In this document: piece by piece, positions 2,975 to 59,425 of the stretch
Layout: each line of letters starts with the position of its first letter
Numbering within the stretch: position 1 is the first letter of the stretch
NCBI GenBank assembly: GCA_964387845.1
Contig: CAYLXA010000001.1
Coordinates: forward strand, 1 to 64,000
Direction of reading: 5' to 3'
From: an uncultured bacterium
GTDB lineage: Bacteria > Omnitrophota > Omnitrophia > Omnitrophales > Abzuiibacteriaceae
Length of the DNA: 64,000 nucleotides
Program-made: the position numbers and the translations under genes
The notes under the pieces: model-generated
Told to the model about the DNA's origin: nothing
The model's input: only the letters and a program-made list of their open reading frames with translations
Databases searched by the model: none

Positions 2975-2986
2975 TTTTATCCTTCT

Positions 2987-3014
2987 GTGCGGGCGAGGCA
3001 TGCCTCGCCCCTAC
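2987..3014. repeat. 28-nt palindromic repeat, copy 2 (proC/yggS junction)
   Basis: gtgcgggcgaggcatgcctcgcccctac. Confidence 0.8.
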
Positions 3015-3700
3015 GTACGCGCTCCAAACACCGCGGTACCGATCCGGATTAAATTGGAACCTTCTTCGATTGCGATTTCAAAATCCGAGCTCATGCCCAT
3101 CGATAATATTTTGAAATCGGGCTTCGCCGTCTTCTTTATTTTTTCAAACAACTCTCTTAACATTTTAAATGAAGCACGTGTTTTTGTTGCGTCATCCGTC
3201 AAAGGCCCGATCGTCATCAGGCCTTTCAAAGCAAGCTGCGGCAAATTCAAAACCGCCTCCGCCAGCTTTTCGGCTTCGTTTGGCGCAACACCGAATTTCG
3301 TGTCTTCCCCGCTCGTATTGACCTGAATCAAGCAATCCACGATCTGGTCTTTCCGGGCAGCTTCTTTATTGATGGTGTTCGCCAGCTTCAAACTGTCGAC
3401 TGAATGAATCAGTACGGGCGAGGCATGCCTCGCCCCTACACAATATTTCACTTTGTTCGTCTGTAAATGCCCGATCAGGTGCCAGCGAATGTCATTCGGC
3501 AGTGCGCGGCTTTTTTCGCGCCATTCCTGGACCCGGTTTTCGCCAAAATCACGGCAGCCGAGCTTATACGCCTCCGAAATCACTTCCGCAGGAATTGTTT
3601 TGGTGACCAAAACCAATTGAATATCCTGAGCGCTTCGGCCTGAGCGTGCACGCGCAGCTTCAATCTTCTCCCTGAGAGTCTCTAAATTCTTGGCAATCAC
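3011..3700 (-). CDS. yggS: YggS-family PLP-binding homeostasis protein
   Basis: 229 aa. 'LVLVTKTIPAEVI', 'FGENRVQE', 'WHLIGHLQTNK', 'LSMGMSSDFEIAIEEGS..IRIGTAVFG' match the YggS/Alr-N-domain fold. Palindromic repeat copy 3 is translated in-frame inside it (VGARHASPVL). Confidence 0.8.
   Translation of the reverse strand: MIAKNLETLREKIEAARARSGRSAQDIQLVLVTKTIPAEVISEAYKLGCRDFGENRVQEWREKSRALPNDIRWHLIGHLQTNKVKYCVGARHASPVLIHSVDSLKLANTINKEAARKDQIVDCLIQVNTSGEDTKFGVAPNEAEKLAEAVLNLPQLALKGLMTIGPLTDDATKTRASFKMLRELFEKIKKTAKPDFKILSMGMSSDFEIAIEEGSNLIRIGTAVFGART
3413..3440. repeat. 28-nt palindromic repeat, copy 3, inside the yggS coding sequence
   Basis: gtacgggcgaggcatgcctcgcccctac at 3413-3440. The yggS reading frame continues through it. 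Confidence 0.8.
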
Positions 3701-3773
3701 AGAGGGACATTTTAGACAAGATTTTATCTGATGTCAATCTAACTGATTGCTGGAAAAAGACTTACAAATAGAT

Positions 3774-3868
3774 TTTCCCTCTCCCTCTGGGAGAGGGATC
3801 AAGGGTGAGGGATTTCAAATCTATCACCCTCATCCTAACCTTCTCCCTCTTCAGAGGGAGAAGGGATA
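3774..3868. repeat. CCCTCTCCC-type hairpin repeat pair (copy A), likely terminator region of the GldG-like gene
   Basis: 'tccctctccctctgggagagggatcaagggtgaggg' plus a perfect hairpin 'ccttctccctc-ttca-gagggagaagg'. It is homologous to 53490-53547. Confidence 0.6.
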
Positions 3869-3871
3869 ATG

Positions 3872-5914
3872 CTAAACCTTATTGAAAACGAGTTTAATAA
3901 ATCCACCTAACAGCAAAATAGCGGGAATAAAGAAAATAGAGACACTAAAGAGAATGGCGTGTTCAGAGCCGCTCAATATAAACGGTTCGCGGGACGACGG
4001 GCTGGCTTTAAATACAAATTTTTCATCCGGGCGCTCAGACATCAGCCATTTAACAATGATGACCAGAAAATCCCGATTCCCGAGCAGCTCAATCCGCGAA
4101 TTCACCAGCCAGTCGCTGTCGCCTATGACCGCCATTTTACCGCCCGACTTTTGCTCCTCCAGCGCGCACACAACCGCCACAGGGCCGGCGATATCTTCCT
4201 TTTCATTAAATTCGGCCTTATCATTTTCCAAATCTGTGAGATTCGTCTCTGCCCAGCTGCCCTTTCCGGTCCGCGCGATTTCGGTAATTTCGATATTGTC
4301 CGGAACGTTGAGGCGCTTGCGGACCGAGCGCGTGACGGGCATGATGACCGGCTTGGTAAAATTTTGGACGCTTGCGTGCGACCCAAAATCGGTGACAACC
4401 ATGGCAAGCTTCTCGACGCCTTGCAGTTGGCTGAATTTATCGATCATCACATTGCGCCCAAAATCAACGCCGAGTTCCCACAAAAACCGCCGGATGTGCT
4501 CGCCTTCTTTGGGAAAGACAGGGTCAACCGCAATCAAAACACTGCCGCCCGATTCAAAATGGCGGCGCAGAACCTCAATCTCATCGCGGCTTAAGTCCGA
4601 ATGCGGGCCGGCCAGCAAAATCAAATCTTGCGGATTCAAATCTTCAATGCGGGTCAAAACCGATTCCTGCAATTCATACCGCAGACTTTTGATTTTGGCC
4701 GCGAGGTTTTCATAGCCCATCTCATTTTGATCCGCGAGACTCGGCTCACCGTGCCCGATGGCAAAAAAAATCCGGCGTTCGCGTTTTTCCAGGAACGACG
4801 CGAGCGCGGCGGTAATTTTATTTTCATCCGGAAAACTGACCGTCATTTTTTTCCCTTTTGCTTCGACAATGGTCGCGCCGTAAGCGTCGACACGGTTTTC
4901 GAGCGCTTCCTCGGGATTTTGATCGGGATCGACGAGTTTGTACTTGAAGCCCGGCGCACGATAAGCGTATTCTTGGAGCACATTCTCAACATTTTTAAAA
5001 TTGACATCGCGGCGCGATAAAAACGCCGTGATTAAAATGGGGTCACGCCCGAATTGTTTTAAAACACCTTCGGTTTGTACGGAAAGAAGATTCTGGTTGG
5101 TGTCTGATAAATCAATCCGGCGTAAAAATTCGGGCGGCAATACGCAGAGCAGCGCAATCACGGCAAGGCTTGTGATGATCCGGCCGTTCGACTTTGATTT
5201 TTGCTTTTTGGCGTAAAAAAGTGTCCGGCTGAAAATAATCCAAACGCACACAGTGTAAATTAAAATCGCTTTGATATCTAAAATTCCCCGGCTGAATTCA
5301 CCGATAAGCGTAAACGGCAGCCATCTTTGGCCCGGCCACGTAAACTGACCGGCAAACCAAAGCAATCCGCACGTGAATAAAGACGCCAGAAAAGCTCTTT
5401 TCCGGTTTTTATCCGCGGCAGTGAAAAAAATCGAGCATGCAACGAACAAAACCGTGACCAACAGAACACCCAGAAAAGCCGATGCAAGCCGCCCGGAATC
5501 CAACCCGCCTTTCATGATCTGTAAAATAAAGAACCCAAGCGACGACGGCAGTAAAATCAAAATCGAAAACGAAAGTACGGTCAAATATTTTCCCGAAAGC
5601 GTTTTGCCGGCCGTCAACTTGATGAAAATCAGTTTTTGGCTTCGGTGAATAACCAAATCCGCCAGGATCGGAACCGCGATGACCAGCACCCACACCACAT
5701 TGACGAGGTGCGGATGGATGAGCGCCTGGTTCAGGTCAAAAAAGTAGTGTGGATCTTCGGCCAGCCGCTTCACGGAAAGTGCGTGCGCCACATACACATT
5801 GGTCCAAAACAGCATTCCTGTGATGAGCGTTCCCAAGATCAGGAACAAAAATTCAAAAAAGGATGATAACTGAAGGTTTAGAAAGGTCCGGGAAGTTTTT
5901 AGAATGGAACTCAT
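3872..5914 (-). CDS. Fused ABC-2-type permease-like N-terminal domain plus GldG-like ABC-transporter auxiliary domain membrane protein
   Basis: 680 aa. An N-terminal multi-TM segment is followed by a central region ('FFAIGHGEPSLADQNEMGYENLAAKI...LILLAGPHSDLSRDEIEVLRRHFESGGSVLIAVDP') matching the ABC_transp_aux/GldG pattern, with a C-terminal TM anchor. Confidence 0.5.
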   Translation of the reverse strand: MSSILKTSRTFLNLQLSSFFEFLFLILGTLITGMLFWTNVYVAHALSVKRLAEDPHYFFDLNQALIHPHLVNVVWVLVIAVPILADLVIHRSQKLIFIKLTAGKTLSGKYLTVLSFSILILLPSSLGFFILQIMKGGLDSGRLASAFLGVLLVTVLFVACSIFFTAADKNRKRAFLASLFTCGLLWFAGQFTWPGQRWLPFTLIGEFSRGILDIKAILIYTVCVWIIFSRTLFYAKKQKSKSNGRIITSLAVIALLCVLPPEFLRRIDLSDTNQNLLSVQTEGVLKQFGRDPILITAFLSRRDVNFKNVENVLQEYAYRAPGFKYKLVDPDQNPEEALENRVDAYGATIVEAKGKKMTVSFPDENKITAALASFLEKRERRIFFAIGHGEPSLADQNEMGYENLAAKIKSLRYELQESVLTRIEDLNPQDLILLAGPHSDLSRDEIEVLRRHFESGGSVLIAVDPVFPKEGEHIRRFLWELGVDFGRNVMIDKFSQLQGVEKLAMVVTDFGSHASVQNFTKPVIMPVTRSVRKRLNVPDNIEITEIARTGKGSWAETNLTDLENDKAEFNEKEDIAGPVAVVCALEEQKSGGKMAVIGDSDWLVNSRIELLGNRDFLVIIVKWLMSERPDEKFVFKASPSSREPFILSGSEHAILFSVSIFFIPAILLLGGFIKLVFNKV

Positions 5915-5922
5915 GTTATTTT

Positions 5923-5950
5923 GTACGGGCGAGGCACGCCTCGCCCCTAC
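5923..5950. repeat. 28-nt palindromic repeat, copy 4 (tyrS / GldG-like intergenic)
   Basis: gtacgggcgaggcacgcctcgcccctac. Confidence 0.8.
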
Positions 5951-7170
5951 TTAAGACTGACGCGGGCAAACTTGCGCTTGCCGCATTGCACAATCACCGC
6001 CGGATCGAGCGCAAAACTGGATTCCGGCGACTCGACTTTTGATTTATTGACTTTGACGCCGCCCTGCTCGACTAAGCGGCGGCCTTCGCTTTTGCTCGCC
6101 ACGAGGCCGGCTTCTTTGAGAAGGTTCACGATATCGATTTTGCCGTTTTGAAGCAAACTTTTAGAAATTTTCACTTCTTCAATTTCATCCGGCATTTCTT
6201 TATTCTTGAATACCTGATCGAACTGGTCGCTCGCTTTTCCGGCAGCGTCTTTTCCGTAATAAATCGTGATAATGTCACGCGCCAGCTGGGCTTTCGCGTT
6301 GCGCGGATTGGTTTCGATTTCTTTGGCGCTGATTTTACTGGAAGTTAAATACTGGAAATATTTGGCAATGAGCGGATCCGGAATCGACATCACTTTTCCG
6401 AACATTTGATCCGGCGCATCCTGCAAAGCAATGTGATTCGAGAGTGATTTGGACATTTTCTGTTTGCCGTCCAAGCCTTCAATGATCGGAAGCGTCATCA
6501 CGACTTGCGGCTCCTGGCCGTAATCGCGCTGAAGTTCACGGCCCACAAGCAGATTGAATTTCTGATCGGTGCCGCCAAGCTCGACATCGGCCTTCAAAGC
6601 AACGGAATCGTAGCCCTGCATCAAGGGATACAGAAATTCCAGAATCGTGATCGGTTGCTTGTCGTCGTAGCGCTTCTTAAAATCATCGCGCTCCAAAATC
6701 CGCGCGACGGTGTATTTAGACGTGAGCGCTAGAAAATCCGCAGGCTTCAAAGCATCCAGCCATTTGGAATTGTAAACCACTTCGACATTTTTATTTTTAT
6801 CGAGAATTTTGAAGACTTGTGCTTGATACGTTTCCGCGTTTTTCTTGATCTCTGCTTCCGAAAGCGGCTTGCGGGTTTCCGAACGGTGCGACGGATCGCC
6901 GATACGCGCCGTAAAATCGCCGATCAGAAAGACGATCGTGTGGCCGAGCTCCTGAAGCGCTTTGAGTTTGCGGAGCGGAACCGTGTGGCCCAAATGCAAA
7001 TCCGGAGCCGAAGGGTCGGCGCCGTATTTGATCCGGAGTGGTTTGCCGCGTTCAAGCTTCTTCAGCAAATCGGCTTCGGAAATCAGGTCGACTGTATTTT
7101 CTTTGAATATTTTGAGCTGGTCTTGGGGCTTCATAGTGTTAAGTTTACAGAAATCAACCGCGCGATTCAA
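5947..7170 (-). CDS. tyrS: Tyrosyl-tRNA synthetase (true start possibly 7134, MKPQDQL)
   Basis: Class I 'HLGH' and 'KMSKS' motifs, with a C-terminal S4-like domain. Confidence 0.9.
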
Positions 7171-13479: not shown

Positions 13480-15916
13480 CAAAGACTCAAAATTGAAGTG
13501 ATGGTACTCGGTTTCAGAGGCCGGCAATTCATCGGTGGCATTCGCCACCCAAAATTCGGGAAATTGATACACCACACTTTGAATATTGGAGTCGGGCGCA
13601 ATTGCCTGCGCGATTTTTCTCGCGATTTCGGGGTCAATTTTTCCGTAATTTTCGATCACAAGCTCGCCTTGCTTTTTGTAGCGTGTTTCATAAGCGCTTC
13701 CGGCCGGAAATTCGAGACCGGGCTTTTTGGGATTGCCTTTCGCGCAAGTCTGCAGATCGCGGACCTGCTGGTCCATCGCCGCATCAGCTCTCAAAAGCGC
13801 GTTTTCAATCGGCATTCCGTAGCTCGCTGCTTTTTCCTTCGGATCATTGTCACGAAAAACCTGAAAGTGATTCGCAGTGGTTTCAATAGCGACAGCTTCT
13901 TTTTTCTTCGCATCTGCAATCATATAATTGAAGCCGCTCGTCCGCGGATTGAGCGTAATGATTTTCTCCGCCGTTTCCAAAGAATCGGCGTTCTGCAGAA
14001 TGCGTTTTAAGAGAAACGGCATCGGCGTTCCTTTGAACGTTTCATCAACCGAATCAGAGCCGACTTGTCCGACCGAAATTCCCTGCTGATTCACGCCCGA
14101 TAAAACGCCCGTAAAGCCGTAATAACCGATGTTCGCGTACGGAATTCCGTTGTCGGGTTTATGGACCATGATAGCCGCCAATCGGTGAACGCCGATGTCT
14201 TTGACCCAATCGAGGTTGCGGATGTGGATTAATTTTTCGCCTTTCGTGGCTTTTCCGAAATAAACGCCGTTGGCACAGAACGATTCGATGTAATCCGGGA
14301 TCGCGTGCAGCCGCTTCACTTCTTTGAATGAAAGTCCTGAGCCGTCGGCAAGACCTTTCATTTCCATCAGTTCACCATATGTCACATAAGGCGCCATCTT
14401 TTTCCAGGCGCGGTTCAGGCGCCATTTCAGAATCCATTTCGAAATGCCCGGAACATAAAGCAAGCGGTTGAGGTAACGGCTGATTTGTTTGTCTGCGGCC
14501 CGGATTTCTTTTTTCATAAGACTTCCGTGCTGAAACCCCATTTCATACGCGCTGCCGTGTAAATACAAAACAGGAATTAGGCCATCGCGGACCAAAATTC
14601 CCTCTTTTGATTCTTTTTTCGAAATTGAATTGAGCAAGCGGTCAAAAGTTTTGTAGAAAAAGAGGTCAAATTTTTTTCCGTAGAAACTCGCGCGGGATTC
14701 ATACTGAGAAGAATCCAAGTAATAACGCTCCGGAATCACGTAGCCCAAGTAATCGTTCGCGTAACCGATTGCAAGCAGCATCAGCTTGCGTGCGTTCATG
14801 AGATTCTCGATTTCGAGCCCAACCTGCGAAGAAGCTTCCGCCGGAAGCGCCGCAAAACCGAGCTCGCCCATTCGGAAAACTTGAAATTCCGATCGGCGCG
14901 GGAAAAACCGGTTTCCGATGACAGGCGGAACACGCAAAAATGATGCGCGCAGCTTGACGCGCGGAAGCCTTGTGCGTTCGTGCGCCGATTTCCATTCGCC
15001 GCTTGCATCCACTTTTTTGAACTGGATAGACTTGATCTTGCTTTTGACGGCTTCTGCATAGAGCTTCATCTTTTTTTCAGGATAATCGGAATCAATACCA
15101 CTCGGGCGCAAATCACCGGAAGCGCCCTGCGCAAACAGTGCGACTGATCCGGGATTCTCGGTTTCCAAGAGTTTCGCGAGCTCGCCGGCGTAATCGGCCG
15201 AAAAATGCCGGTTCATTTTTTTGAGAATGGTTGGATGAGCGCCAAAAAGAACGATTTGAGAAACCAGCCCGTGACCTTCACCGTAAAATCTCACGGCTTT
15301 TACAAGTTCGGGGACTTCAATTTTCTCATCCATCCGGTTTTCAATCAATTCACCCGCATCGATTTCACCGTACTCGATGCGTGAGACTTGCGTTTCATTT
15401 TGAACCGCGAGCACGATGCTTTCTGCAATTTTGTCGGTCGTGAATTCAAAGACCTTGCGGTCAAATCCGCCGCCGATGAACCTTTGCCAGAACCGGCTGC
15501 CGATGGCACCTGTTCCCGAATGCGTGTGCGTCGCGAATATCATCACATGCGATTCAGAAAGGTGCCTGGCACCATTTTGGGCGCCTGGCACCGTCTGGGC
15601 GTTCACTTTTTTGACAACGGATTTTTTCAAATTGGAATCAATGAGGAGAAGATCCGCCGACACAAACACAAACGTTTCTCCGTCTTTTGTAACACTCAAG
15701 GCTCTTGAAAATAGCGGATCGAGAACACCCTTAGACGGCTTTCCGCCCCGCTTACCGTATCCGGCAAGCGGCGTCCCGATGGGCGGCGTAATCTCAATTT
15801 TGGCCGCACCGGCAAAAATCTGGCTCTCTTCGGCAAAAGATTGCTCAGGCAAGCACAATAAGACAAGCAATAGAAAAATGTATATGACGCTAGGACATTT
15901 TAACAACGAAGACATC
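13444..15916 (-). CDS. Secreted two-domain amidohydrolase: neutral/alkaline ceramidase N-terminal domain fused to a peptidase C45 (acyl-CoA:6-APA acyltransferase-like Ntn hydrolase) domain
   Basis: Signal peptide 'KCPSVIYIFLLLVLLCLPEQSFA'. 'AAKIEITPPIGTPLAGYG' and 'ATHTHSGTGA' match the ceramidase family. The C-terminal half ('FCANGVYFG...IRNLDW...IGYYGFTGVLSGVNQQGISVG') matches C45. The ORF track's upstream extension to 16218 is rejected. Confidence 0.55.
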
Positions 15917-16187
15917 GACGAAACCGCGTCTGGAGGCTGCCCGAGCATGGTGGCAAGAATGGGCTTCTCATCCAGCACCGGCACTCGAGCCGCTCCTGCG
16001 GCGCCTCGGTGCCTTCGCTCTCGCTCTTGGGACTTCGCCTTCGGCGAAGACCAAGCTCCCAAGAGCTCCGAGAGATGCTTCTTGAGAAGCCCATTCTTGC
16101 CGAGGGCAGCTGGAAGTCGAGTGAGGATTTCTCGCTGGGAAATCCGAGCGTCGGTAGAGTCGATTGTCTGAGTTAAGTTAAAATGTC
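15894..16187. repeat. GC-rich ~300-nt repeat element with terminal inverted repeats (copy X); overlaps the start of the amidase gene
   Basis: It begins 'gacattttaacaacgaagac' and ends 'gttaaaatgtcc'. It is alignable at roughly 60-65% identity along its length with 59085-59386, with shared blocks (cgcgtctgRagg, ggaagtcgagtgaRga, gagcgtcgg, gtctgag). Confidence 0.6.
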
Positions 16188-16299
16188 CAAAAAGGTCCTT
16201 TTTTATCTGATCGGCCATCTGAAGTTCCTCGCCTTAAAATAGTGCCATCTGTTTTGCTCATCTTCAAGCGGCTTTAAGCCAAACTTCTCTTGTGTTACA

Positions 16300-27039: not shown

Positions 27040-27215
27040 CAAAGATCGTGGCGGATCCGCTAAGCAGTGTGGCGGAGGTAAACTAACTGAAAAGTTGGGG
27101 CGCAAAGCAAGAGGTCCGAAATGAAATTAAAAGGATGGCTCGGCTGCCGAAATTCATATTCAGAATTTGGAATAAACGCCCGTACTTTTTAGTACGGGCG
27201 TTTATGTTTTTATGG
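27040..27215 (+). promoter_or_regulatory. Candidate c-di-GMP-I (GEMM) riboswitch with an intrinsic-terminator expression platform in the 5' leader of the pilin-like gene
   Basis: 27071-27106 'GGCGGAGGUAAACU-AACU-GAAA-AGUU-GGGGCGCAAAGC' matches the GEMM core 'GGCAAACC-stem-GNRA-stem-GGGACGCAAAGCC' with identical spacing. A 13-bp perfect hairpin plus U-tract sits at 27174-27212, and the ATG is at 27226. Confidence 0.5.
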
Positions 27216-27225
27216 AGAAAAACGG

Positions 27226-28218
27226 ATGAAGCAAAAAAAGTTGGGTGTAACGCTGGTTGAAATCATGATTGTGGTTGCCATCATCGGTATAGTGGCAGCA
27301 TTCGCAATCCCCAACTATCTACGTTCAAGGCAAACAGCCGATACCGCTTCTTTGGAACAAACCGCACGTCAGATTGCGCAAAAAATGGAACAAATTTTCT
27401 GGGGCCAGAATCCAAACGAATATCCGCCGGAATTGTCGATGCCTTCCGGGCTTGTCACGTGGGCTGCGCCAACCAACTTGGGCAATATTCAAGATTTGCT
27501 TGAATTGCTCAAGAAAATTTGTGAACAACAGGGTAAAAGCTTGTCATCCGGCCAAATCGGAGATTTGACGGCCTCTGAAATTGCTGCCGATCCCGAAGCC
27601 ATGCAAGCGCTCGTTGAAACTTGTTTCCAGAACAATCCGCCACTAACATACACAACACCGGCCGGCGGACAAACCTATTTATTTTCTGTGTCATCACCCA
27701 ATGGAACCAACTACACGGCAAGCCCGGGCGGCGTCAGCCAAACGCCTCCCGATTGCACCGGTGATGCCGGATGCGATGACGGTGTTTATTGCAATGGTGT
27801 TGAAACCTGCCAGTACGGAAGCTGCCAGGCCGGAATTAGTCCGTGCGACGAAGGATATACCTGCCACGAATCTTATCAGGAATGTACTGAGGGCATCTGC
27901 GGAAACGGTATTTGGGAAGGTTATGAAGAATGCGGTGAAGAAGATACGGGATTTAGTTATGAATTCATGGAATGCATTAATTGCCGCTGGGAATTCGTCG
28001 GCTGCCCAGAGGGTTACTATTTCTACGACTGGGCATGCTATCCATCGCCGCCCGACTGCCCATCAGGCTCTTACAAACAACCCGGTCTCGGATGCTGTTG
28101 GCCCGATCCCGGCATGCCGCCGTGGCCAAGACCTATTCAACTGCCTACTTGCGGAGAAGTCGCTGAAGTAATCCCGGATGGCGGCGGGCCCCCTCCGATG
28201 GACGACCCGTCATTTTAA
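27226..28218 (+). CDS. Prepilin-type (GspG/type IV pilin-like) protein with a large Cys-rich C-terminal domain
   Basis: N-terminal 'KKLGVTLVEIMIVVAIIGIVAAFAIPNY' class III signal/methylation motif. The C-terminal 160 aa contain about 30 Cys in CGNG..E.CGE-type repeats (myxobacterial Cys-rich-repeat-like). Confidence 0.75.
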   Translation: MKQKKLGVTLVEIMIVVAIIGIVAAFAIPNYLRSRQTADTASLEQTARQIAQKMEQIFWGQNPNEYPPELSMPSGLVTWAAPTNLGNIQDLLELLKKICEQQGKSLSSGQIGDLTASEIAADPEAMQALVETCFQNNPPLTYTTPAGGQTYLFSVSSPNGTNYTASPGGVSQTPPDCTGDAGCDDGVYCNGVETCQYGSCQAGISPCDEGYTCHESYQECTEGICGNGIWEGYEECGEEDTGFSYEFMECINCRWEFVGCPEGYYFYDWACYPSPPDCPSGSYKQPGLGCCWPDPGMPPWPRPIQLPTCGEVAEVIPDGGGPPPMDDPSF

Positions 28219-29525: not shown

Positions 29526-30779
29526 TTGCACATGAAAACTTCAAAAAAATATGGTTTAACGCTGGTTGAAATTGTGATTGTGGTAGCGCTCATCGCACTT
29601 GTTTCAATGATCGCAATTCCCAACTTTATGCGCAACCATCAAACCGCCAATTCACAATCTTTTGCTCAAACCATTAAACAAATTGCCCAGAAACTGGAGT
29701 TGATATTCTGGGGCCAGAACCCAAACGAATATCCGCCCGTATCCGCCTTTACAAACGGCCTGCAAACCTGGGCAGCGCCTACGAACCTCGGAAACATCGA
29801 GGATTTGGAGCGGCTTCTTCAAAAAGCATGTGAAGAAATTCTAAAACAAAATTTCAGCGCGGCTTCTCTCAACGATCAAACAGTATTTGCCCAGGAACTC
29901 TTTAATTGCCTTGACGGGCATGTGATTGATTATATTGTCACCGAAGACTTACAAAATTATTGGTTTAATTTTGCGGATCCATACACGACCGGCTATTACA
30001 GCATCGGAAATGGTTTTAGCGAACCTAAATACAACGATCCCGTAGTGCCGGCTCCTCCGCCTCCTCCGCCGCCAGCTTGCGGAAACGGCATTGCTGACGC
30101 AGGAGAGTTTTGCGGCGAGCCCCAATTTCCGGGCTGTCACGCAGGTACAACCTGCATTAACTGTCAATGCGAAGCAATAGCAGGCTGTGGTGGCTTCTCA
30201 GGAGGAAGCTGTAATCCTAATTTTCCATCTACCTGTCCGCCCGGATATTCTTGCCATGCACAATGCCGCCAATGCGTGTTCAATAATTGGAACCCTACCG
30301 GGGGCGGCAGCTGTTTTGTCGGTGATACGCAAATTTTGATGACGGACGGAAGCACAAAAGCCATTAGCGATATTCAGGTAGGCGATCAAGTCGCCAGCTA
30401 TAATGAAGAAACTAAAACGGTGGTAGTATCAAAGGTTGATAAATTACTAATCCACGATCCGGAAATTTATTGGATCATCAACGATCGAATCAAAGTAACG
30501 CCGAACCACAGCTTTTATATTGACGGAAAATGGAAGCATATTGGACAAGCTGAGCTGGGTGACAACATGCTCAAGCATGACGGAAATCAGGAAGCTATTG
30601 TAAAAATGGAACTAATTACTATTAAAGAACCTATTTACAACTTGGAAATTCAGGACACGCACACCTACTATGCGGAAGGGGTCTTGGTACATAATGCAAT
30701 CAAGGGGTATACTCCCGGTTGGACGCATGGAAACATGGACGGAATTGAAGCGCCGGACGGTGATGGGGACGGCGGTTGA
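29526..30779 (+). CDS. Prepilin-type (GspG-like) protein with a Pro-run, a Cys-rich module and a C-terminal Hint (intein-like/BIL) autoprocessing domain
   Basis: N-terminus 'KKYGLTLVEIVIVVALIALVSMIAIPNF', paralogous to 27226. The Hint domain lies at nt 30312-30695. Confidence 0.75.
   Translation: MHMKTSKKYGLTLVEIVIVVALIALVSMIAIPNFMRNHQTANSQSFAQTIKQIAQKLELIFWGQNPNEYPPVSAFTNGLQTWAAPTNLGNIEDLERLLQKACEEILKQNFSAASLNDQTVFAQELFNCLDGHVIDYIVTEDLQNYWFNFADPYTTGYYSIGNGFSEPKYNDPVVPAPPPPPPPACGNGIADAGEFCGEPQFPGCHAGTTCINCQCEAIAGCGGFSGGSCNPNFPSTCPPGYSCHAQCRQCVFNNWNPTGGGSCFVGDTQILMTDGSTKAISDIQVGDQVASYNEETKTVVVSKVDKLLIHDPEIYWIINDRIKVTPNHSFYIDGKWKHIGQAELGDNMLKHDGNQEAIVKMELITIKEPIYNLEIQDTHTYYAEGVLVHNAIKGYTPGWTHGNMDGIEAPDGDGDGG
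30312..30695 (+). other. Hint/intein-like domain (blocks A, B, F, G) inside the pilin-like CDS
   Basis: The intein/Hint splicing blocks are present: 'CFVGDTQILMTDGS', 'TPNH' (TxxH), '...YNLEIQDTHTYYAEGVLVHN'. No endonuclease domain is present, and the +1 residue is Ala. Confidence 0.75.
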
Positions 30780-32394: not shown

Positions 32395-32460
32395 TCCCAT
32401 TCAAGTCCTGTCATCCATTGTTTTAATTTGGCCTTGAGAAGAAATAAAAGTGATGCTTCG
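32395..32460. repeat. Inverted duplicate of the tRNA-Leu 3' end plus its 3' flank
   Basis: 32395-32460 is the reverse complement, at roughly 85% identity, of 32533-32600 (includes 'ttcaagtcctg', 'cattgttttaatttggcc', 'aaataaaagtgatgcttc'). Confidence 0.7.
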
Positions 32461-32577
32461 CCGCGAGTTCCGCAGGCATCAACCACTTTGTATTTAAGTA
32501 AATATAGAGATGCCGAGGACTGTCTGAGCGCCGAAGCATCACTTTTATTTTGATACGATAAGGCCAAATTAAAACAA

Positions 32578-32658
32578 TGCGCGGGACAGGACTTGAACCT
32601 GCACTCCTTGCGGAACCAGCCCCTCAAGCTGGCGTGTCTGCCATTTCACCACCCGCGC
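32578..32658 (-). tRNA. tRNA-Leu (anticodon GAG), 81 nt with a long variable arm
   Basis: GCGCGGGTGGTGAAATGGCAGACACGCCAGCTTGAGGGGCTGGTTCCGCAAGGAGTGCAGGTTCAAGTCCTGTCCCGCGCA. The cloverleaf has a GTTCAAGTC T-loop and a CTTGAGG anticodon loop. Confidence 0.85.
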
Positions 32659-32935
32659 AAATATAAGCCACTAATCGAAATTTAAAGTCAAAACTGAATA
32701 AGCTGTCACGCCAGCGAAGCGGCGTGTCTGTCCCAGAGTTTCCATAGACTGGTATTCGATTTTTAATTGTAACTCTGGGACTGCCCTGACTTCCGATTAA
32801 AACCCTACTTGTACATCAATGTGAGTCAGGGCTGCCATTTCACCACCCGCGCATAACATAAACTACTAACTAAAATCTAATAAGAAAACGTGATAAGCCG
32901 TCACGCCAGCAAAGCGGGTATTATAGGAAGATTAA
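32659..32935 (-). repeat. Degenerate upstream duplicate of the tRNA-Leu 5' region, interrupted in the D-loop by a two-hairpin ~105-nt element. It also carries a second direct repeat of the tRNA promoter-proximal sequence.
   Basis: Minus strand: 'GCGCGGGTGGTGAAATGGCAG' (32852-32832), then hairpins CCCTGAC..GTCAGGG and TCCCAGAG..CTCTGGGA, then 'ACACGCC...'. A ~95-nt direct repeat is shared with the region immediately 5' of the genuine tRNA. Confidence 0.6.
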
Positions 32936-33407: not shown

Positions 33408-33523
33408 CATAGGTAAATTTTGCAGCCCTAAAATATTGATGACCAATCATCTATTTGTTGAGATTTTAGGGCAGCATTTACTTTTGATTAATAAACGAAT
33501 TGACGCTTTAAGGAAAGTAAACG

Positions 33524-33594: not shown

Positions 33595-33680
33595 ATGATC
33601 GAACATCGAACGTCGAACGTCGTGATTCGAAAACCGATCTACCATCTAGATAGTCACAATCCGAGGTTCGATGTTCGGCT

Positions 33681-53489: not shown

Positions 53490-53547
53490 TCTAATCATCC
53501 CTCACCCTTCCCTCTCCCTGTGGGAGAGGGATAAAGGGAGAGGGTTT
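53490..53547. repeat. CCCTCTCCC-type hairpin repeat (copy B)
   Basis: 'ccctctccctgtgggagagggataaagggagagggttttt' is homologous to 3785-3830. Confidence 0.6.
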
Positions 53548-54111
53548 TTAATCATGAAAAACGCGCGAGACGGGGATATCAAGTTCCGTCACCGGAAGCG
53601 CGCTTAATATTTGAAATTGAAACGCTATGCCGTAACTCACTGTCTTCTTTGGCAATTTCGCCAAAAAACGGTCGTAGTAACCGCCGCTCCTGCCGAGACG
53701 ATTGTTCGCTTGATCGAACGCAAGACCCGGTACCAATACCAAATCAATTACGTCATTTGAAACCGGCTTCCGGAATTCAGGCTTGGGCTCTAATATTCCA
53801 TAATTACCCGGCACTAAATCTTTTTCCGGATCGTGAATCTTGCAAGGCATGAGCAGTTTACTCTTTGGATCAACCGCCGGCACCACGATGGTTTTCCTCG
53901 CCTTCACCGCTTCTGCCATCAGTTCGTGCGTATCGACTTCTTCATCGGTCGACACGTAAAACATGACCGTTTTTGCCGATTGAAACCGGCTGTCTTTCAA
54001 TATCTTATGACAGACCATGCGGCTGCGCTTCTTACGCTCGCTTGCAGGTTCGGCTTTCAATTTGGTGCGCATTTCAGCGCGTATTTCTTCTTTTTCCTGT
54101 TCGATGGTCAT
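53548..54111 (-). CDS. 5-formyltetrahydrofolate cyclo-ligase
   Basis: 'LVPGLAFDQANNRLGRSGGYYDRFL' matches the 5-FCL signature. Confidence 0.8.
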   Translation of the reverse strand: MTIEQEKEEIRAEMRTKLKAEPASERKKRSRMVCHKILKDSRFQSAKTVMFYVSTDEEVDTHELMAEAVKARKTIVVPAVDPKSKLLMPCKIHDPEKDLVPGNYGILEPKPEFRKPVSNDVIDLVLVPGLAFDQANNRLGRSGGYYDRFLAKLPKKTVSYGIAFQFQILSALPVTELDIPVSRVFHD

Positions 54112-54120
54112 AACGAATCA

Positions 54121-54317
54121 TGCGCCCGGCCGGAATTGAACCAGCAACCCTCTCCTTAGGACGGAGATGCTCTATCCAATTGTCCTGACTTTCATTAAAA
54201 CCCCAATGCGTTTATTCATCGGAAGTCAGGACTACCCTTGCGCTTTCATTAAAACCGATTCATTCGGTCTATCAGTAGCGCAAGGGTTGAGCTACAGGCT
54301 TAGTAAATTTTAATATC
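54121..54317 (-). pseudogene. Second tRNA-Arg(CCT)-like copy with a degenerate acceptor stem and a ~110-nt two-hairpin insertion in the D-loop
   Basis: Minus strand: 'GCCTGTAGCTCAA' + [CCCTTGCGC...GCGCAAGGG, GTCCTGAC...GTCAGGAC] + 'AATTGGATAGAGCATCTCCGTCCTAAGGAGAGGGTTGCTGGTTCAATTCCGGCCGGGCGCA'. Confidence 0.6.
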
Positions 54318-54391
54318 TGCCCTCGGCCGGAATTGAACCAGCAACCCTCTCCTTAGGACGGAGATGCTCTATCCAATTGAGCTACGAGGGC
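54318..54391 (-). tRNA. tRNA-Arg (anticodon CCT), 74 nt
   Basis: GCCCTCGTAGCTCAATTGGATAGAGCATCTCCGTCCTAAGGAGAGGGTTGCTGGTTCAATTCCGGCCGAGGGCA. Confidence 0.9.
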
Positions 54392-54469
54392 ACAATTGTA
54401 GCATTTTATCATAAAACCACGGGGAGATATTCCGAAACTTACAGATAAAAATAAGCCGCAAACGGGAGA

Positions 54470-58964: not shown

Positions 58965-59084
58965 TCTATCTCCTTTAAATTCAACTAGTTACGCTATATT
59001 ATATATTGCGGAAAGTCAGGTATTGTAGCACATCCACAGATAAAAACCACTGTTTTGTAGACATGTTTTGCGGAGCTGCCGTTT

Positions 59085-59386
59085 GTACATTTTAACAGCG
59101 AAGACCTCAGCTGAGACGCGTCTGAAGGCTCGAGCGGGCATGGGGGGGCGGCAAGGGATATCTTCCGGCACCGGCAGTTCGGCTCTTCCTGCGAGAGCCG
59201 CCTGCCTCGGCGCTCACCGTTTGAATCCCGCCAGAAACGGCGGGAGCCAAGCTTCAAACGGTTGCGCGACGTGCCTACAGATATTCCTTGCCGCCGAGTG
59301 AGAGCCGGAAGTCGAGTGAAGACTTGCCTCGCCGGGGCAAGTCGAGCGTCGGCGAAGCTGAGAGTCTGAGCAAAGTTAAAATGTGC
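59085..59386. repeat. GC-rich ~300-nt repeat element with terminal inverted repeats (copy Y)
   Basis: It starts 'gtacattttaacagcgaagacctcagctgag' and ends 'gtctgagcaaagttaaaatgtgc'. It is homologous to 15894-16187 in the same orientation. Confidence 0.6.
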
Positions 59387-59425
59387 GGGCGCTAGTTCTG
59401 CAGAAAAGTTTTTAGGGTGTGAAAA

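Follow-up and report, generated by a model that had tools for sequence, protein, structure and literature searches.

The second of two tandem tRNA-Arg(CCT) genes in the window, the whole 64,000-nt stretch of Omnitrophota DNA analysed here, is a dead copy (pseudogene) whose D-loop DNA is split by a 105-nt insert composed of two hairpins. The insert is a member of a family of paired hairpins, which occurs at each of the three tRNA loci in the window. Most probably, the insert is a tRNA-seeking miniature mobile element and not a new kind of tRNA. The full explanation that we favour, with moderate confidence, is that a tandem tRNA-Arg copy of the "B-type" described below was interrupted in its D-loop DNA by a 105-bp non-autonomous, lineage-restricted palindromic repeat that has been moved between tRNA loci. 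The evidence comes from three genomes: that of the window, the relative L016, and a third Omnitrophota MAG (GCA_016206995.1).

The tRNA-Arg(CCT) locus

The locus is composed of the following features.

54318..54391, minus strand: intact tRNA-Arg(CCT) (ARAGORN call; Rfam tRNA, 63.3 bits)
54300..54317, minus strand: 18-nt spacer GATATTAAAATTTACTAA between the intact and the second tRNA-Arg copy
54287..54299, minus strand: 5' fragment of the second copy, GCCTGTAGCTCAA (from sequence reading and comparison with relatives)
54182..54286, minus strand: 105-nt insert of two hairpins splitting the second copy
54235..54286, minus strand: hairpin 1 (hp1), CCCTTGCGC-N34-GCGCAAGGG, with a perfect 9-bp stem
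54233..54234, minus strand: linker TA joining the two hairpins; the Leu inserts have CA instead
54182..54232, minus strand: hairpin 2 (hp2, "H" type), GTCCTGAC-N35-GTCAGGAC (from DNA fold, H profile and covariation)
54121..54181, minus strand: 3' part of the second copy, AATTGG...CGGGCGCA, from the D-loop AATTGG to the discriminator A

The intact gene, with the acceptor GCCCTCG/CGAGGGC ("A-type"), is presumed to be the working copy. An initial annotation of this DNA had described a second copy downstream of it on the same strand (54121-54299), with a D-loop insertion, an identical anticodon arm and T-arm and a degenerate acceptor, and this is confirmed: the interior is identical to that of the intact gene, and the acceptor forms five of its seven pairs. 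The distances given there needed correction, as the gap of "ten nt" is the 18-nt spacer (54317-54300) and the insert of 110 nt measures 105 nt, or 107 nt with the duplicated AA. The 5' fragment consists of GCCTG (acceptor positions 3-7), TA, GCTC (D-stem) and AA, the first two acceptor bases being lost, and matches the "B-type" acceptor GCGCC(C/T)G of the relatives L004, L002, and L025. The 3' part ends in the acceptor strand CGGGCGC and stops 9 nt upstream of the 5-FCL ATG at 54111. A repeat finder reports the two copies as a 62-nt direct repeat with 97% identity, the differences lying in the acceptor strand. Logan contigs from the same sequencing run (L001, L009) break off precisely at the borders of the tRNA interior common to the two copies, which fits two tRNA-Arg copies with different flanks and supports them independently.

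ARAGORN calls only three tRNAs in the window, none of them at 54121-54299, and the second copy reaches 19.3 bits with the Rfam tRNA model (gathering score 29), the alignment being confined to model positions 9-63. Deleting the insert together with one AA in silico leads ARAGORN to call a tRNA-Arg(CCT), in which the two failing acceptor pairs are 1:72 (A.C) and 2:71 (A.G). At the apt/5-FCL locus, relatives have one intact B-type tRNA-Arg without an insert, sometimes inverted, and in close relatives the gene is inverted or duplicated inside a conserved neighbourhood. It is from this B-type tRNA-Arg(CCT) that the second copy probably descends. The spacer resembles, by eye only, the -10-like tail (GATAAAATGC...) of a conserved element upstream of the first copy, a likeness that would fit a tandem duplication of ~92 nt comprising the promoter tail and the tRNA. 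The repeat period is 197 at the Arg locus and 195 at the Leu locus described below, and the duplication unit of ~92 nt is nearly equal at both. Campbell-type integration of a ~195-nt circle, or a long target duplication, was rejected because the acceptor-stem halves would then mispair (a5 with b3); tandem paralogues plus an insertion are the more economical account.

Within the insert, the initial annotation had seen two hairpins with a common motif, and both stand: the stems are perfect and GGTTTTAATGAAAG lies once in each hairpin and nowhere else in the window as an exact match (with up to three mismatches allowed, there are 17 matches vs. ~10 expected). The hp1 stem reaches 10-11 bp with the flanking A and the linker T, encloses an inner 5-bp stem and has the motif GGTTTTAATGAAA on its 3' side. 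The hp2 stem is GTCCTGAC(TT)/(AA)GTCAGGAC. Above it, CCGATG and CATTGG form an upper stem, and TTTTAATGAAA on the 3' side is left unpaired; the profile of the H hairpin type matches hp2 at E = 4e-11, hp2 being one of its four source sequences. Compared with shuffles, the DNA fold has z = -6.1 for hp1 (-15 kcal/mol) and z = -3.6 for hp2, and the RNA fold of the whole 196-nt stretch has z = -5.3. The insert lacks terminal inverted repeats, as its ends CCCTTGCGC... and ...GTCAGGAC each pair with an internal arm. It lies at A14/A15, 5' of G18G19, and is flanked by a duplicated AA; an equivalent parse is a duplication-free insertion directly after CA.

Several identities for the insert were tried and rejected. 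K-turn, box C/D, T-loop, CRISPR-repeat, attC, and IHF-site consensuses do not fit the loop motif by eye. Whether the cutoff is the gathering threshold or E <= 5, Rfam offers no family for the insert; RsmY and YrlA alone turn up, at chance level and far below threshold. Derivation from the host tRNA was discarded, since local alignment on both strands is no better than with shuffles (p = 0.8-1.0). The same range applies to complementarity or identity to the host tRNAs as expected of an IS110-type bridge or seek RNA; the short matches (ATTGG) are common to inserts with different targets, although a 2-nt flanking repeat would be compatible with such a guide.

Related hairpins at other tRNA loci and in other genomes

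A sister insert is present at the tRNA-Leu(GAG) locus.

32832..32852, minus strand: 5' fragment of tRNA-Leu (nt 1-21), host of the Leu insert, identical in the relative L016
32730..32831, minus strand: 102-nt sister insert, CCCTGACT..AGTCAGGG, CA, GTCCCAGAGTT..AACTCTGGGAC
32578..32658, minus strand: intact tRNA-Leu(GAG), 195 nt downstream of the fragment

The Leu insert is followed by AGACACGCC (32729-32721), which supplies nine further tRNA nucleotides with AG duplicated, and deleting the insert together with one AG restores tRNA-Leu nt 1-30. Homology between the Arg and Leu inserts extends from end to end (63% identity vs. a shuffle maximum of 57.5%), and the stem CCTGAC/GTCAGG that had been noted as common to Arg hp2 and Leu hp1 is real. 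Both inserts lie in the D-loop, as the initial annotation had it, but they do not share one exact position: the Leu insert lies on the 3' side of G18G19, at the AG that precedes the 3' strand of the D-stem, and the Arg insert at A14/A15. CA precedes both of them (as CTCA and GGCA), two shared nucleotides at two sites. The Leu leader with its insert lies downstream of a sigma-70-like promoter (10/12). As a separate observation, this leader contains GCTGGCGTGAC, which comes close to the reverse complement of tRNA-Leu nt 21-31.

The third locus carries a double hairpin just past the tRNA.

33425..33521, minus strand: double hairpin past tRNA-Gln(CTG), beginning 2 nt after the tRNA 3' end
33477..33521, strand opposite to the tRNA: Gln hpA, an H-type unit in reverse orientation (H profile E = 2e-8; itself a profile source)
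33425..33472, minus strand: Gln hpB, GCCCTAAAATC..GATTTTAGGGC, ~90% identical to its L016 counterpart

In both genomes, the H profile recognises Gln hpA on one strand alone, the one opposite to the tRNA. The double hairpin is kept in L016 with compensatory stem changes, and the trailer hairpins end 14-18 nt before rlmH. L016 has a 12-13-nt tRNA-Gln 5' repeat at this locus, and the window has a degenerate Gln-like remnant.

The relative L016 (about 83% RlmH identity) carries an insert at the same tRNA-Leu D-loop site, and the two Leu inserts span 102-107 nt. Counting this one, three full-length inserts, 63-75% identical, and further single units are distributed over the three genomes. The Arg insert of the window is 74.5% identical to the Leu insert of L016, whereas the orthologous Leu inserts share only 64% (shuffle maxima about 57%), and this closer relationship across loci than between orthologues points to copying between loci. 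The stems covary: all cells (100%) are paired, five of 10 stem pairs have changed on both sides, no stem has a mismatch, and slid controls are paired in at most 50%. In Leu hp2, four pairs in a row have changed in a compensatory manner between the two genomes, and the tRNA-Leu fragment (21 + 9 nt) is 100% conserved between them, whereas the neighbouring leader diverges. With sites shared by two species, perfect stems and compensatory changes, the Leu and Gln elements resemble sequences under selection for function more than decaying selfish DNA.

In GCA_016206995.1 (L026/L027), the 3' end of an inverted tRNA-Arg borders directly on a related double hairpin (p <= 0.003). A 12-nt stretch of the tRNA-Arg 3' end is repeated in direct orientation on either side of this L026 pair, whose centre is an inverted copy of the flanking tRNA end. 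At the matching site in L004, the hairpin pair is absent, the automatic alignment being ambiguous there. In rlmH relatives at 55-57% identity (L017-L021), no tRNAs adjoin rlmH.

H-type hairpins occur at three of three tRNA loci in the window and two of two in L016. The nhmmer profile of this best-conserved hairpin type was built from four sequences, which are also its four strong hits; its only new match is Leu hp1 (E = 0.59), and neither the 64-kb window nor ~90 kb of other loci yields a further copy. The inserts are thus a real element family tied to tRNA genes, as had been proposed, and the many copies at non-tRNA sites that the initial annotation named as the opposing outcome do not appear in the window or in those ~90 kb, since the profile finds nothing else in the DNA examined. 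Restriction to D-loops, by contrast, had to be given up, because related hairpins lie in reverse 2 nt past tRNA-Gln and at the 3' end of the inverted tRNA-Arg in the other MAG. A structural regular expression matched only the three D-loop inserts. The exact pattern CCCT..GGTTTTAAT..AGGG(Y/N)AGTCC gave two matches among GTDB representatives and six in JGI metagenomes, all of them chance matches in coding or unrelated sequence, and exact-pattern scans of IMG/VR gave 0 hits; such patterns are too strict to catch the diverged L026 copy, and the scanned sets did not include the genome of the window. The insert had no blastn match in plasmid and phage collections. Literature searches on bacterial D-loop or palindromic insertions in tRNA genes and on Omnitrophota repeats found nothing equivalent.

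A proposed mobile repeat and its alternatives

The insert is read as a DNA-level palindromic repeat of the MITE/REP type that prefers tRNA loci and is not restricted to D-loops, as the Leu host retains only 30 nt of tRNA and the orientation of the units is not fixed. The same two observations dispose of the earlier proposal of tRNA-like RNAs with an expanded D-domain: the Leu host is devoid of an anticodon arm, a T arm and a 3' acceptor strand, and reversed hairpin copies would present different RNA loops. The element would consist of two hairpin units of ~50 nt each, of a family restricted to this lineage, and these units probably act as DNA, since either orientation occurs. An enzyme encoded elsewhere in the genome would move or copy them between tRNA loci, where they would land inside or just past tRNA genes and persist only in redundant places, namely a spare tandem copy (Arg), a partial 5' leader duplicate (Leu) or a 3' trailer (Gln, and Arg in the other MAG), with decoding continuing from the adjacent intact tRNA gene. 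The hairpin is the feature under constraint, and most likely the one that the mobilising enzyme recognises on single-stranded or extruded DNA, and this putative enzyme may be analogous to the HUH type (IS200/IS605 or RAYT-like). As part of tRNA operons, the elements would also undergo passive transcription.

Among the 60 called window ORFs, about 50 were scanned, and none of these hit a Pfam family of transposases or recombinases; neither RAYT, TnpA/TnpB nor a DEDD recombinase was seen in the window, and no integrase in the window or in the relative loci examined. Of the features of a classical MITE, in the sense of a DDE deletion derivative, the element has the multiple dispersed homologous copies but lacks terminal inverted repeats, and no parent with a transposase came to light among the ~50 ORFs, plasmids and phages. 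The flanking repeats are heterogeneous, being 2 nt at Arg (AA), 2 nt at Leu (AG), 12 nt at L026 and none evident at Gln, and one classical transposase would not yield such a set. The mobile-repeat reading also leaves the partial tRNA duplicates at each locus unaccounted for.

The hairpins might instead be RNA structures under selection in tRNA-operon transcripts, where, placed between a tRNA and the RNA that follows it, they would serve processing, insulation or stability; we regard this as unlikely. They could form a 5'-terminal hairpin on the rlmH or 5-FCL mRNA after tRNA 3' processing, or a leader decoy carrying a copied tRNA 5' strand that would compete for the 3' strand of the acceptor, the broken tRNA copies then being part of the device. 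All copies do lie in likely tRNA co-transcripts (the Leu leader, the Gln trailer before rlmH, and Arg before 5-FCL), and the conserved sites, perfect and compensated stems, intact tRNA-Leu fragment within a diverging leader and similarity of Gln hpB between two genomes all agree with such a function. However, one hairpin type occurs in both orientations relative to transcription, which prevents its conserved loop sequence from being one RNA motif; relatives do not share the Arg arrangement and have a single insert-free, sometimes inverted tRNA; and the copying between loci that the insert identities indicate speaks against such a function.

Somewhat less probable is that the element is structure-guided mobile DNA that recognises tRNA genes as such, for example through a displaced-strand cloverleaf or an R-loop where tRNA genes are highly transcribed, and moves as a dumbbell of ~105 nt with stacked feet. 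This is suggested by three features. The centre of the insert, AGGG-YA-GTCC, is complementary to its ends when these are joined (GGAC-AR-CCCT). The linker's first base changes together with the target base that flanks the insert (T-A at Arg, C-G at Leu); it can pair with the last target base (A-T and G-C), these being only two independent cases. Finally, the Arg and Leu target sites have no common sequence beyond CA.

Scars of site-specific recombination at tRNA genes, left when integrase-type elements departed or decayed and consisting of att-like tRNA duplicates and hairpin-rich attachment-site arms, are given a low probability, slightly below that of the structure-guided dumbbell. They would explain the partial tRNA duplicates at every locus (Leu nt 1-30, the near-complete Arg copy, the L016 Gln repeat and the Gln-like remnant), the L026/L027 pair with its 12-nt tRNA-Arg 3'-end repeat, which is typical of integrated elements, and the inversion or duplication of tRNA-Arg among close relatives with conserved neighbourhood. 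The D-loop inserts, however, have a repeat of 2 nt only, inside the D-loop, the integrase is absent from the window and the other loci examined, and the inserts are homologous to each other and not to any larger element; at the Arg locus, an attachment-site remnant was rejected on these grounds of repeat, position and missing integrase. The known integrase sublocations in tRNA genes are reportedly the anticodon loop, the T-loop and the 3' end, and no integrase class is known to cross over in the D-loop.

Local birth of the hairpins is very unlikely and would make them no transposing family; in it, template switching during replication, or fold-back synthesis, would have produced them at tRNA genes that are rich in palindromes and highly transcribed. 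Inverted and direct partial tRNA copies at the loci (GCTGGCGTGAC in the Leu leader and the centre of the L026 pair) and the perfect stems throughout would be expected of it, but the loop sequences are homologous between different tRNA loci and genomes, the inserts have no similarity to their host tRNAs beyond the chance level given above, and homologous copies at further unrelated loci, partly seen, go against a purely local origin. An intron that leaves the second tRNA-Arg copy functional after splicing is hardly credible: excising the insert and AA restores the cloverleaf, but no group I, group II or ribozyme model in Rfam matches the insert, the acceptor stem is defective, the Leu host is without two thirds of the tRNA in both genomes so that its exons make no complete tRNA, and 105 nt is below the size of the known self-splicing classes. 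In a survey of 4,934 complete bacterial genomes, the single D-loop insertion was a group II intron (PMC13011429).

If the tRNA preference of the palindromic repeat extends genome-wide, it would be a rare bacterial miniature repeat homing to tRNA genes, D-loop-coding DNA included, and would point to an enzyme that recognises tRNA-gene DNA or hairpin structure; the structure-guided dumbbell, if true, would be a bacterial counterpart of eukaryotic tRNA-gene-targeting retroelements. An ordinary palindromic repeat merely tolerated near tRNAs would be of local interest only. In practical terms, the hairpin elements give rise to tRNA pseudogenes and fragments, which annotation tools overlook or mis-call; they also interrupt short-read assemblies where tRNA loci lie, as in the Logan contigs, and may drive local tRNA-gene duplication and inversion in Omnitrophota.

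Comparison with known systems

Bacterial tRNA introns (group I and, rarely, group II) differ from the element in that it has no ribozyme core and its host copies are incomplete or defective. Tyrosine-integrase islands share with it the preference for tRNA genes, the partial tRNA duplicates beside an intact gene and, in L026, the 12-nt 3'-end repeat, but they are kilobases long, carry an integrase and are not known to cross over in the D-loop, whereas the element is ~105 nt long and has no gene. The mitochondrial double-hairpin elements (DHEs) of Allomyces and other fungi are likewise composed of two adjacent hairpins, show signs of mobility and occupy intergenic and RNA-gene regions; they are organellar, shorter and unrelated in sequence, so that the resemblance is in shape only, and the literature search brought up organellar or eukaryotic reports only.

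Rickettsia palindromic elements (RPEs) are palindromic repeats of ~100-150 bp that are tolerated inside functional genes, RNA genes included. They stay in frame inside working genes, whereas the hosts here are redundant or broken tRNA copies, and the two presumably have no sequence similarity. Miniature elements of IS200/IS605, which are palindrome-associated, resemble the element in that two direct hairpins define the ends, terminal inverted repeats are missing and the target is hardly duplicated, if at all, and the D-loop inserts can be parsed as insertions after a short fixed sequence (CA). Their hairpins are subterminal, whereas those described here have different stems and lie flush with the ends; the shared target here is only 2 nt, and no TnpA/TnpB was seen.

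REP, BIME and REPIN sequences, which are mobilised by RAYT transposases of the HUH type, differ in that the units here are longer (45-54 nt, with a structured loop of 28-35 nt), occur only at tRNA loci within the 64-kb window, with two inside tRNA-coding sequence, and have no RAYT gene in the window. Their likeness to the hairpin element lies in short palindromic units without terminal inverted repeats that often form pairs or mosaics of differing unit types, occur in either orientation in transcribed intergenic DNA and are non-autonomous.

Layout of the tRNA-Arg(CCT) locus

Three tRNA genes were identified in the window by ARAGORN and Rfam, namely Leu(GAG), Gln(CTG), and Arg(CCT), all on the minus strand. 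The Arg locus is arranged as follows:

54391-54318, minus: intact tRNA-Arg(CCT), acceptor GCCCTCG/CGAGGGC (ARAGORN, Rfam)
54317-54300, minus: spacer, 18 nt
54299-54287, minus: second tRNA-Arg copy, 5' piece, 13 nt, GCCTGTAGCTCAA
54286-54182, minus: insert in the second copy, 105 nt
54181-54121, minus: second copy, 3' piece, 61 nt, from D-loop AATTGG to CGGGCGCA

The initial annotation had described an interrupted second copy with two hairpins, which is right except in three minor details: the spacer was given as ten nt and the insert as 110 nt, and the Arg and Leu insertions were assigned the same structural position, while they occupy different sites within the D-loop. The ATG of the 5-formyltetrahydrofolate cyclo-ligase (5-FCL) gene lies 9 nt past the end of the second copy. 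The two copies share a direct repeat of 62 nt with 97% identity, with mismatches in the acceptor strand, and Logan contigs assembled from the same sequencing run end exactly at the borders of this shared interior, the pattern that a pair of copies with differing flanks would produce.

The insert is composed of two perfect-stem hairpins, CCCTTGCGC/GCGCAAGGG and GTCCTGAC/GTCAGGAC, joined by TA, which fold far better than shuffled sequences and both carry GGTTTTAATGAAAG on the 3' side of the loop. It is flanked by the 2-nt repeat AA (AG for the Leu insert), or, in an alternative parse, shows zero duplication with insertion directly 3' of CA. Terminal inverted repeats are absent, and the hairpins define the ends. 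A known RNA family, intron, or ribozyme was rejected, as the insert has no Rfam match; derivation from host tRNAs was likewise rejected, since no similarity to them was found on either strand, which also argues against bridge-RNA-like guides. A survey of tRNA genes in 4,934 complete bacterial genomes reported only one D-loop insertion, a group II intron (PMC13011429), making the D-loop position of the inserts unusual.

The second copy is called neither by ARAGORN nor by Rfam (19.3 bits against a threshold of 29). Once the insert is removed in silico together with a single flanking AA, ARAGORN calls tRNA-Arg(CCT), with five of the seven acceptor pairs kept. The acceptor remnants (GCCTG...CGGGCGC) are of the type found in tRNA-Arg(CCT) at the same locus in relatives (GCGCCTG in L004; GCGCCCG in L002 and L025); the intact upstream gene departs from this type at two base pairs, both compensated. 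Most simply, ~92 nt (promoter tail and tRNA) would have been duplicated in tandem, after which one copy would have stayed functional, and the other would have acquired the insert and been shortened by two bases at its start. If the element is a DNA-level palindromic repeat, the second copy would be a pseudogene, with the insertion tolerated thanks to the intact paralogue 18 nt upstream.

Related double hairpins at other tRNA genes

The Leu locus comprises, in order, a predicted strong sigma-70-like promoter, a leader, tRNA-Leu nt 1-21, a 102-nt two-hairpin insert, nine tRNA nt, a second leader copy, and the intact tRNA-Leu. The same arrangement is found in L016, the rlmH locus of a relative from a different sample (83% RlmH identity), where a 107-nt insert occupies the same position with the same duplicated AG. 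All three inserts can be aligned end to end in one orientation. The window Arg insert is 74.5% identical to the L016 Leu insert, while the two Leu inserts share only 64%, which speaks for copying from one locus to another.

A hairpin scan revealed a third double hairpin in the window (33425-33521, minus), starting 2 nt past the 3' end of tRNA-Gln(CTG), stopping ~18 nt ahead of the rlmH start codon, and kept in L016. Its first unit is of the hairpin type of Arg hairpin 2, on the opposite strand. An nhmmer profile built on this best-conserved hairpin type matched solely at tRNA loci, with none in the rest of the window or in ~90 kb of other loci, and a structural regular expression matched only the three D-loop inserts. 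The GTDB representatives, among which the window's own genome is absent, and JGI metagenomes gave only chance matches to a pattern too strict for diverged copies. All conclusions on distribution draw on the 64-kb window together with a few short loci, three genomes in all. The third genome, the Omnitrophota MAG GCA_016206995.1, has an apt with 77% identity and an inverted tRNA-Arg whose 3' end is directly adjoined by a double hairpin. A direct repeat of the tRNA end, 12 nt long, flanks this pair, and one of the two units, which bears TTATTTTAATGAAAG, shows significant similarity to the hairpins at Arg and Leu. No hairpin pair was seen at the matching site of L004, where the automatic alignment is ambiguous, and the two are thus not called a clean filled-versus-empty pair.

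No main-stem mismatch occurs in any hairpin examined. Among the four clearest homologues, all stem cells (100%) are paired and five of ten pairs are changed on both sides, whereas pairing in slid controls reaches at most 50%. Comparison of the window with L016 shows compensated pairs in Leu hairpin 2 (four, consecutive) and in Gln hairpin A (three). With few sequences, this covariation is supportive rather than conclusive of structure conservation.

Gene neighbourhood and additional features

Homologues of the flanking proteins carry Omnitrophica/Omnitrophota names, and the gene order PPDK-rpoD-apt ... tRNA-Arg ... 5-FCL-ymdB-xseA is conserved. Within it, the placement of tRNA-Arg is unstable:

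Window: forward, doubled
L004 (66%-identity relative): single, inverted
L002: inverted, adjoining 5-FCL
L025: forward, after apt

A conserved element of ~50 nt, TTTTTATCTGTAA...TTTTATGATAAAAT with an extended -10-like TGATAAAAT, lies 5' of tRNA-Arg (window 54393-54445, minus; L025 975-1036; L004 2812-2870). Its orientation is unchanged in L004 despite the inverted tRNA, which suggests an in-place inversion of the gene among close relatives. L004 also has a DUF559/MTES_1575 (Vsr-like endonuclease) gene between 5-FCL and ymdB (3618-4007), absent from the window.

Directly 3' of tRNA-Leu is a very stable hairpin of ~165 nt (~32412-32577, minus; arms TTGTTTTAATTTGGCC.. and ..GGCCAAATTAAAACAA; DNA fold -49 kcal/mol, z = -8.3); the 99-aa ORF predicted over this stretch is without a Pfam match and probably spurious. 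The tRNA-Leu leader is duplicated with 75% identity (32659-32720 and 32853-32917, minus; L016 counterpart 3647-3703) and contains GCTGGCGTGAC, a near reverse complement of tRNA-Leu nt 21-31, within 20 nt identical in L016, which might be an inverted piece of the tRNA or reflect pairing of leader and tRNA. A degenerate tRNA-Gln-like remnant, AGATGGTAGATCGGTTTTCGAATCAC, lies 5' of tRNA-Gln (33600-33655, minus), and in L016 (2714-2815) the first 12-13 nt of tRNA-Gln are repeated exactly, ~100 nt ahead of the gene, so each of the three tRNA loci has partial tRNA duplicates.

Two homologous non-coding elements of ~315 nt (15880-16195 and 59072-59393, minus; 76% identical), preceding a ceramidase-like gene and PPDK, have pairing ends (ACATTTTAAC...GTTAAAATGT) and no Rfam match; RNAalifold predicted 79 pairs, 25 with compensatory double changes, making them candidates for a structured RNA or MITE. 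Four intergenic copies of a GC-rich palindrome, GTACGGGCGAGGCATGCCTCGCCCCTAC (2149-2183, 2983-3017, 3408-3442, and 5919-5953), resemble REPs or terminators and have no relation to the hairpins at tRNA genes. A palindromic repeat, TTCCCTCTCCCTCTGGGAGAGGGAT.AAGGG.GAGGG, has two copies with 89% identity (3775-3818 and 53508-53551), one just downstream of 5-FCL. A c-di-GMP-I riboswitch (27067-27151, plus; 52.8 bits) precedes a pilin-like gene (27226-28218, plus; N-terminal methylation motif), whose paralogue 2.3 kb downstream (29526-30779, plus) has a C-terminal HINT/pretoxin domain. At the window edge (120-816, minus), Gp49/HigB-like and HTH (HigA-like) genes form a putative toxin-antitoxin pair.

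Nature of the element

Four observations favour a palindromic repeat acting at the DNA level, with a preference for tRNA loci: the tRNA sequence hosting the Leu insert is just 30 nt long, hairpin units are seen in either orientation, inserts have been exchanged between loci, and copies lie at tRNA genes with D-loops not the sole site. A serious rival is a function at the RNA level, in the processing of tRNA operons or the protection of mRNA, because a purely selfish reading is opposed by element sites conserved in two species with maintained stems, by a tRNA-Leu fragment perfectly conserved beside a diverging leader, and by heterogeneous flanking repeat lengths. A third candidate explanation is that integrase-type elements left scars of their attachment sites. 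The insert had no match in plasmid, phage, and viral collections, and no transposase or recombinase was found among the ~50 of 60 called window ORFs scanned with Pfam.

For a DNA-level repeat, the mobiliser would, we infer, most likely belong to the enzyme class of REP/BIME units or IS200/IS605-type miniature elements, acting on DNA hairpins. These systems are the closest in traits, with a flanking repeat of 2 nt or none, no terminal inverted repeats, and hairpin-defined ends, and their enzymes work on DNA hairpins.
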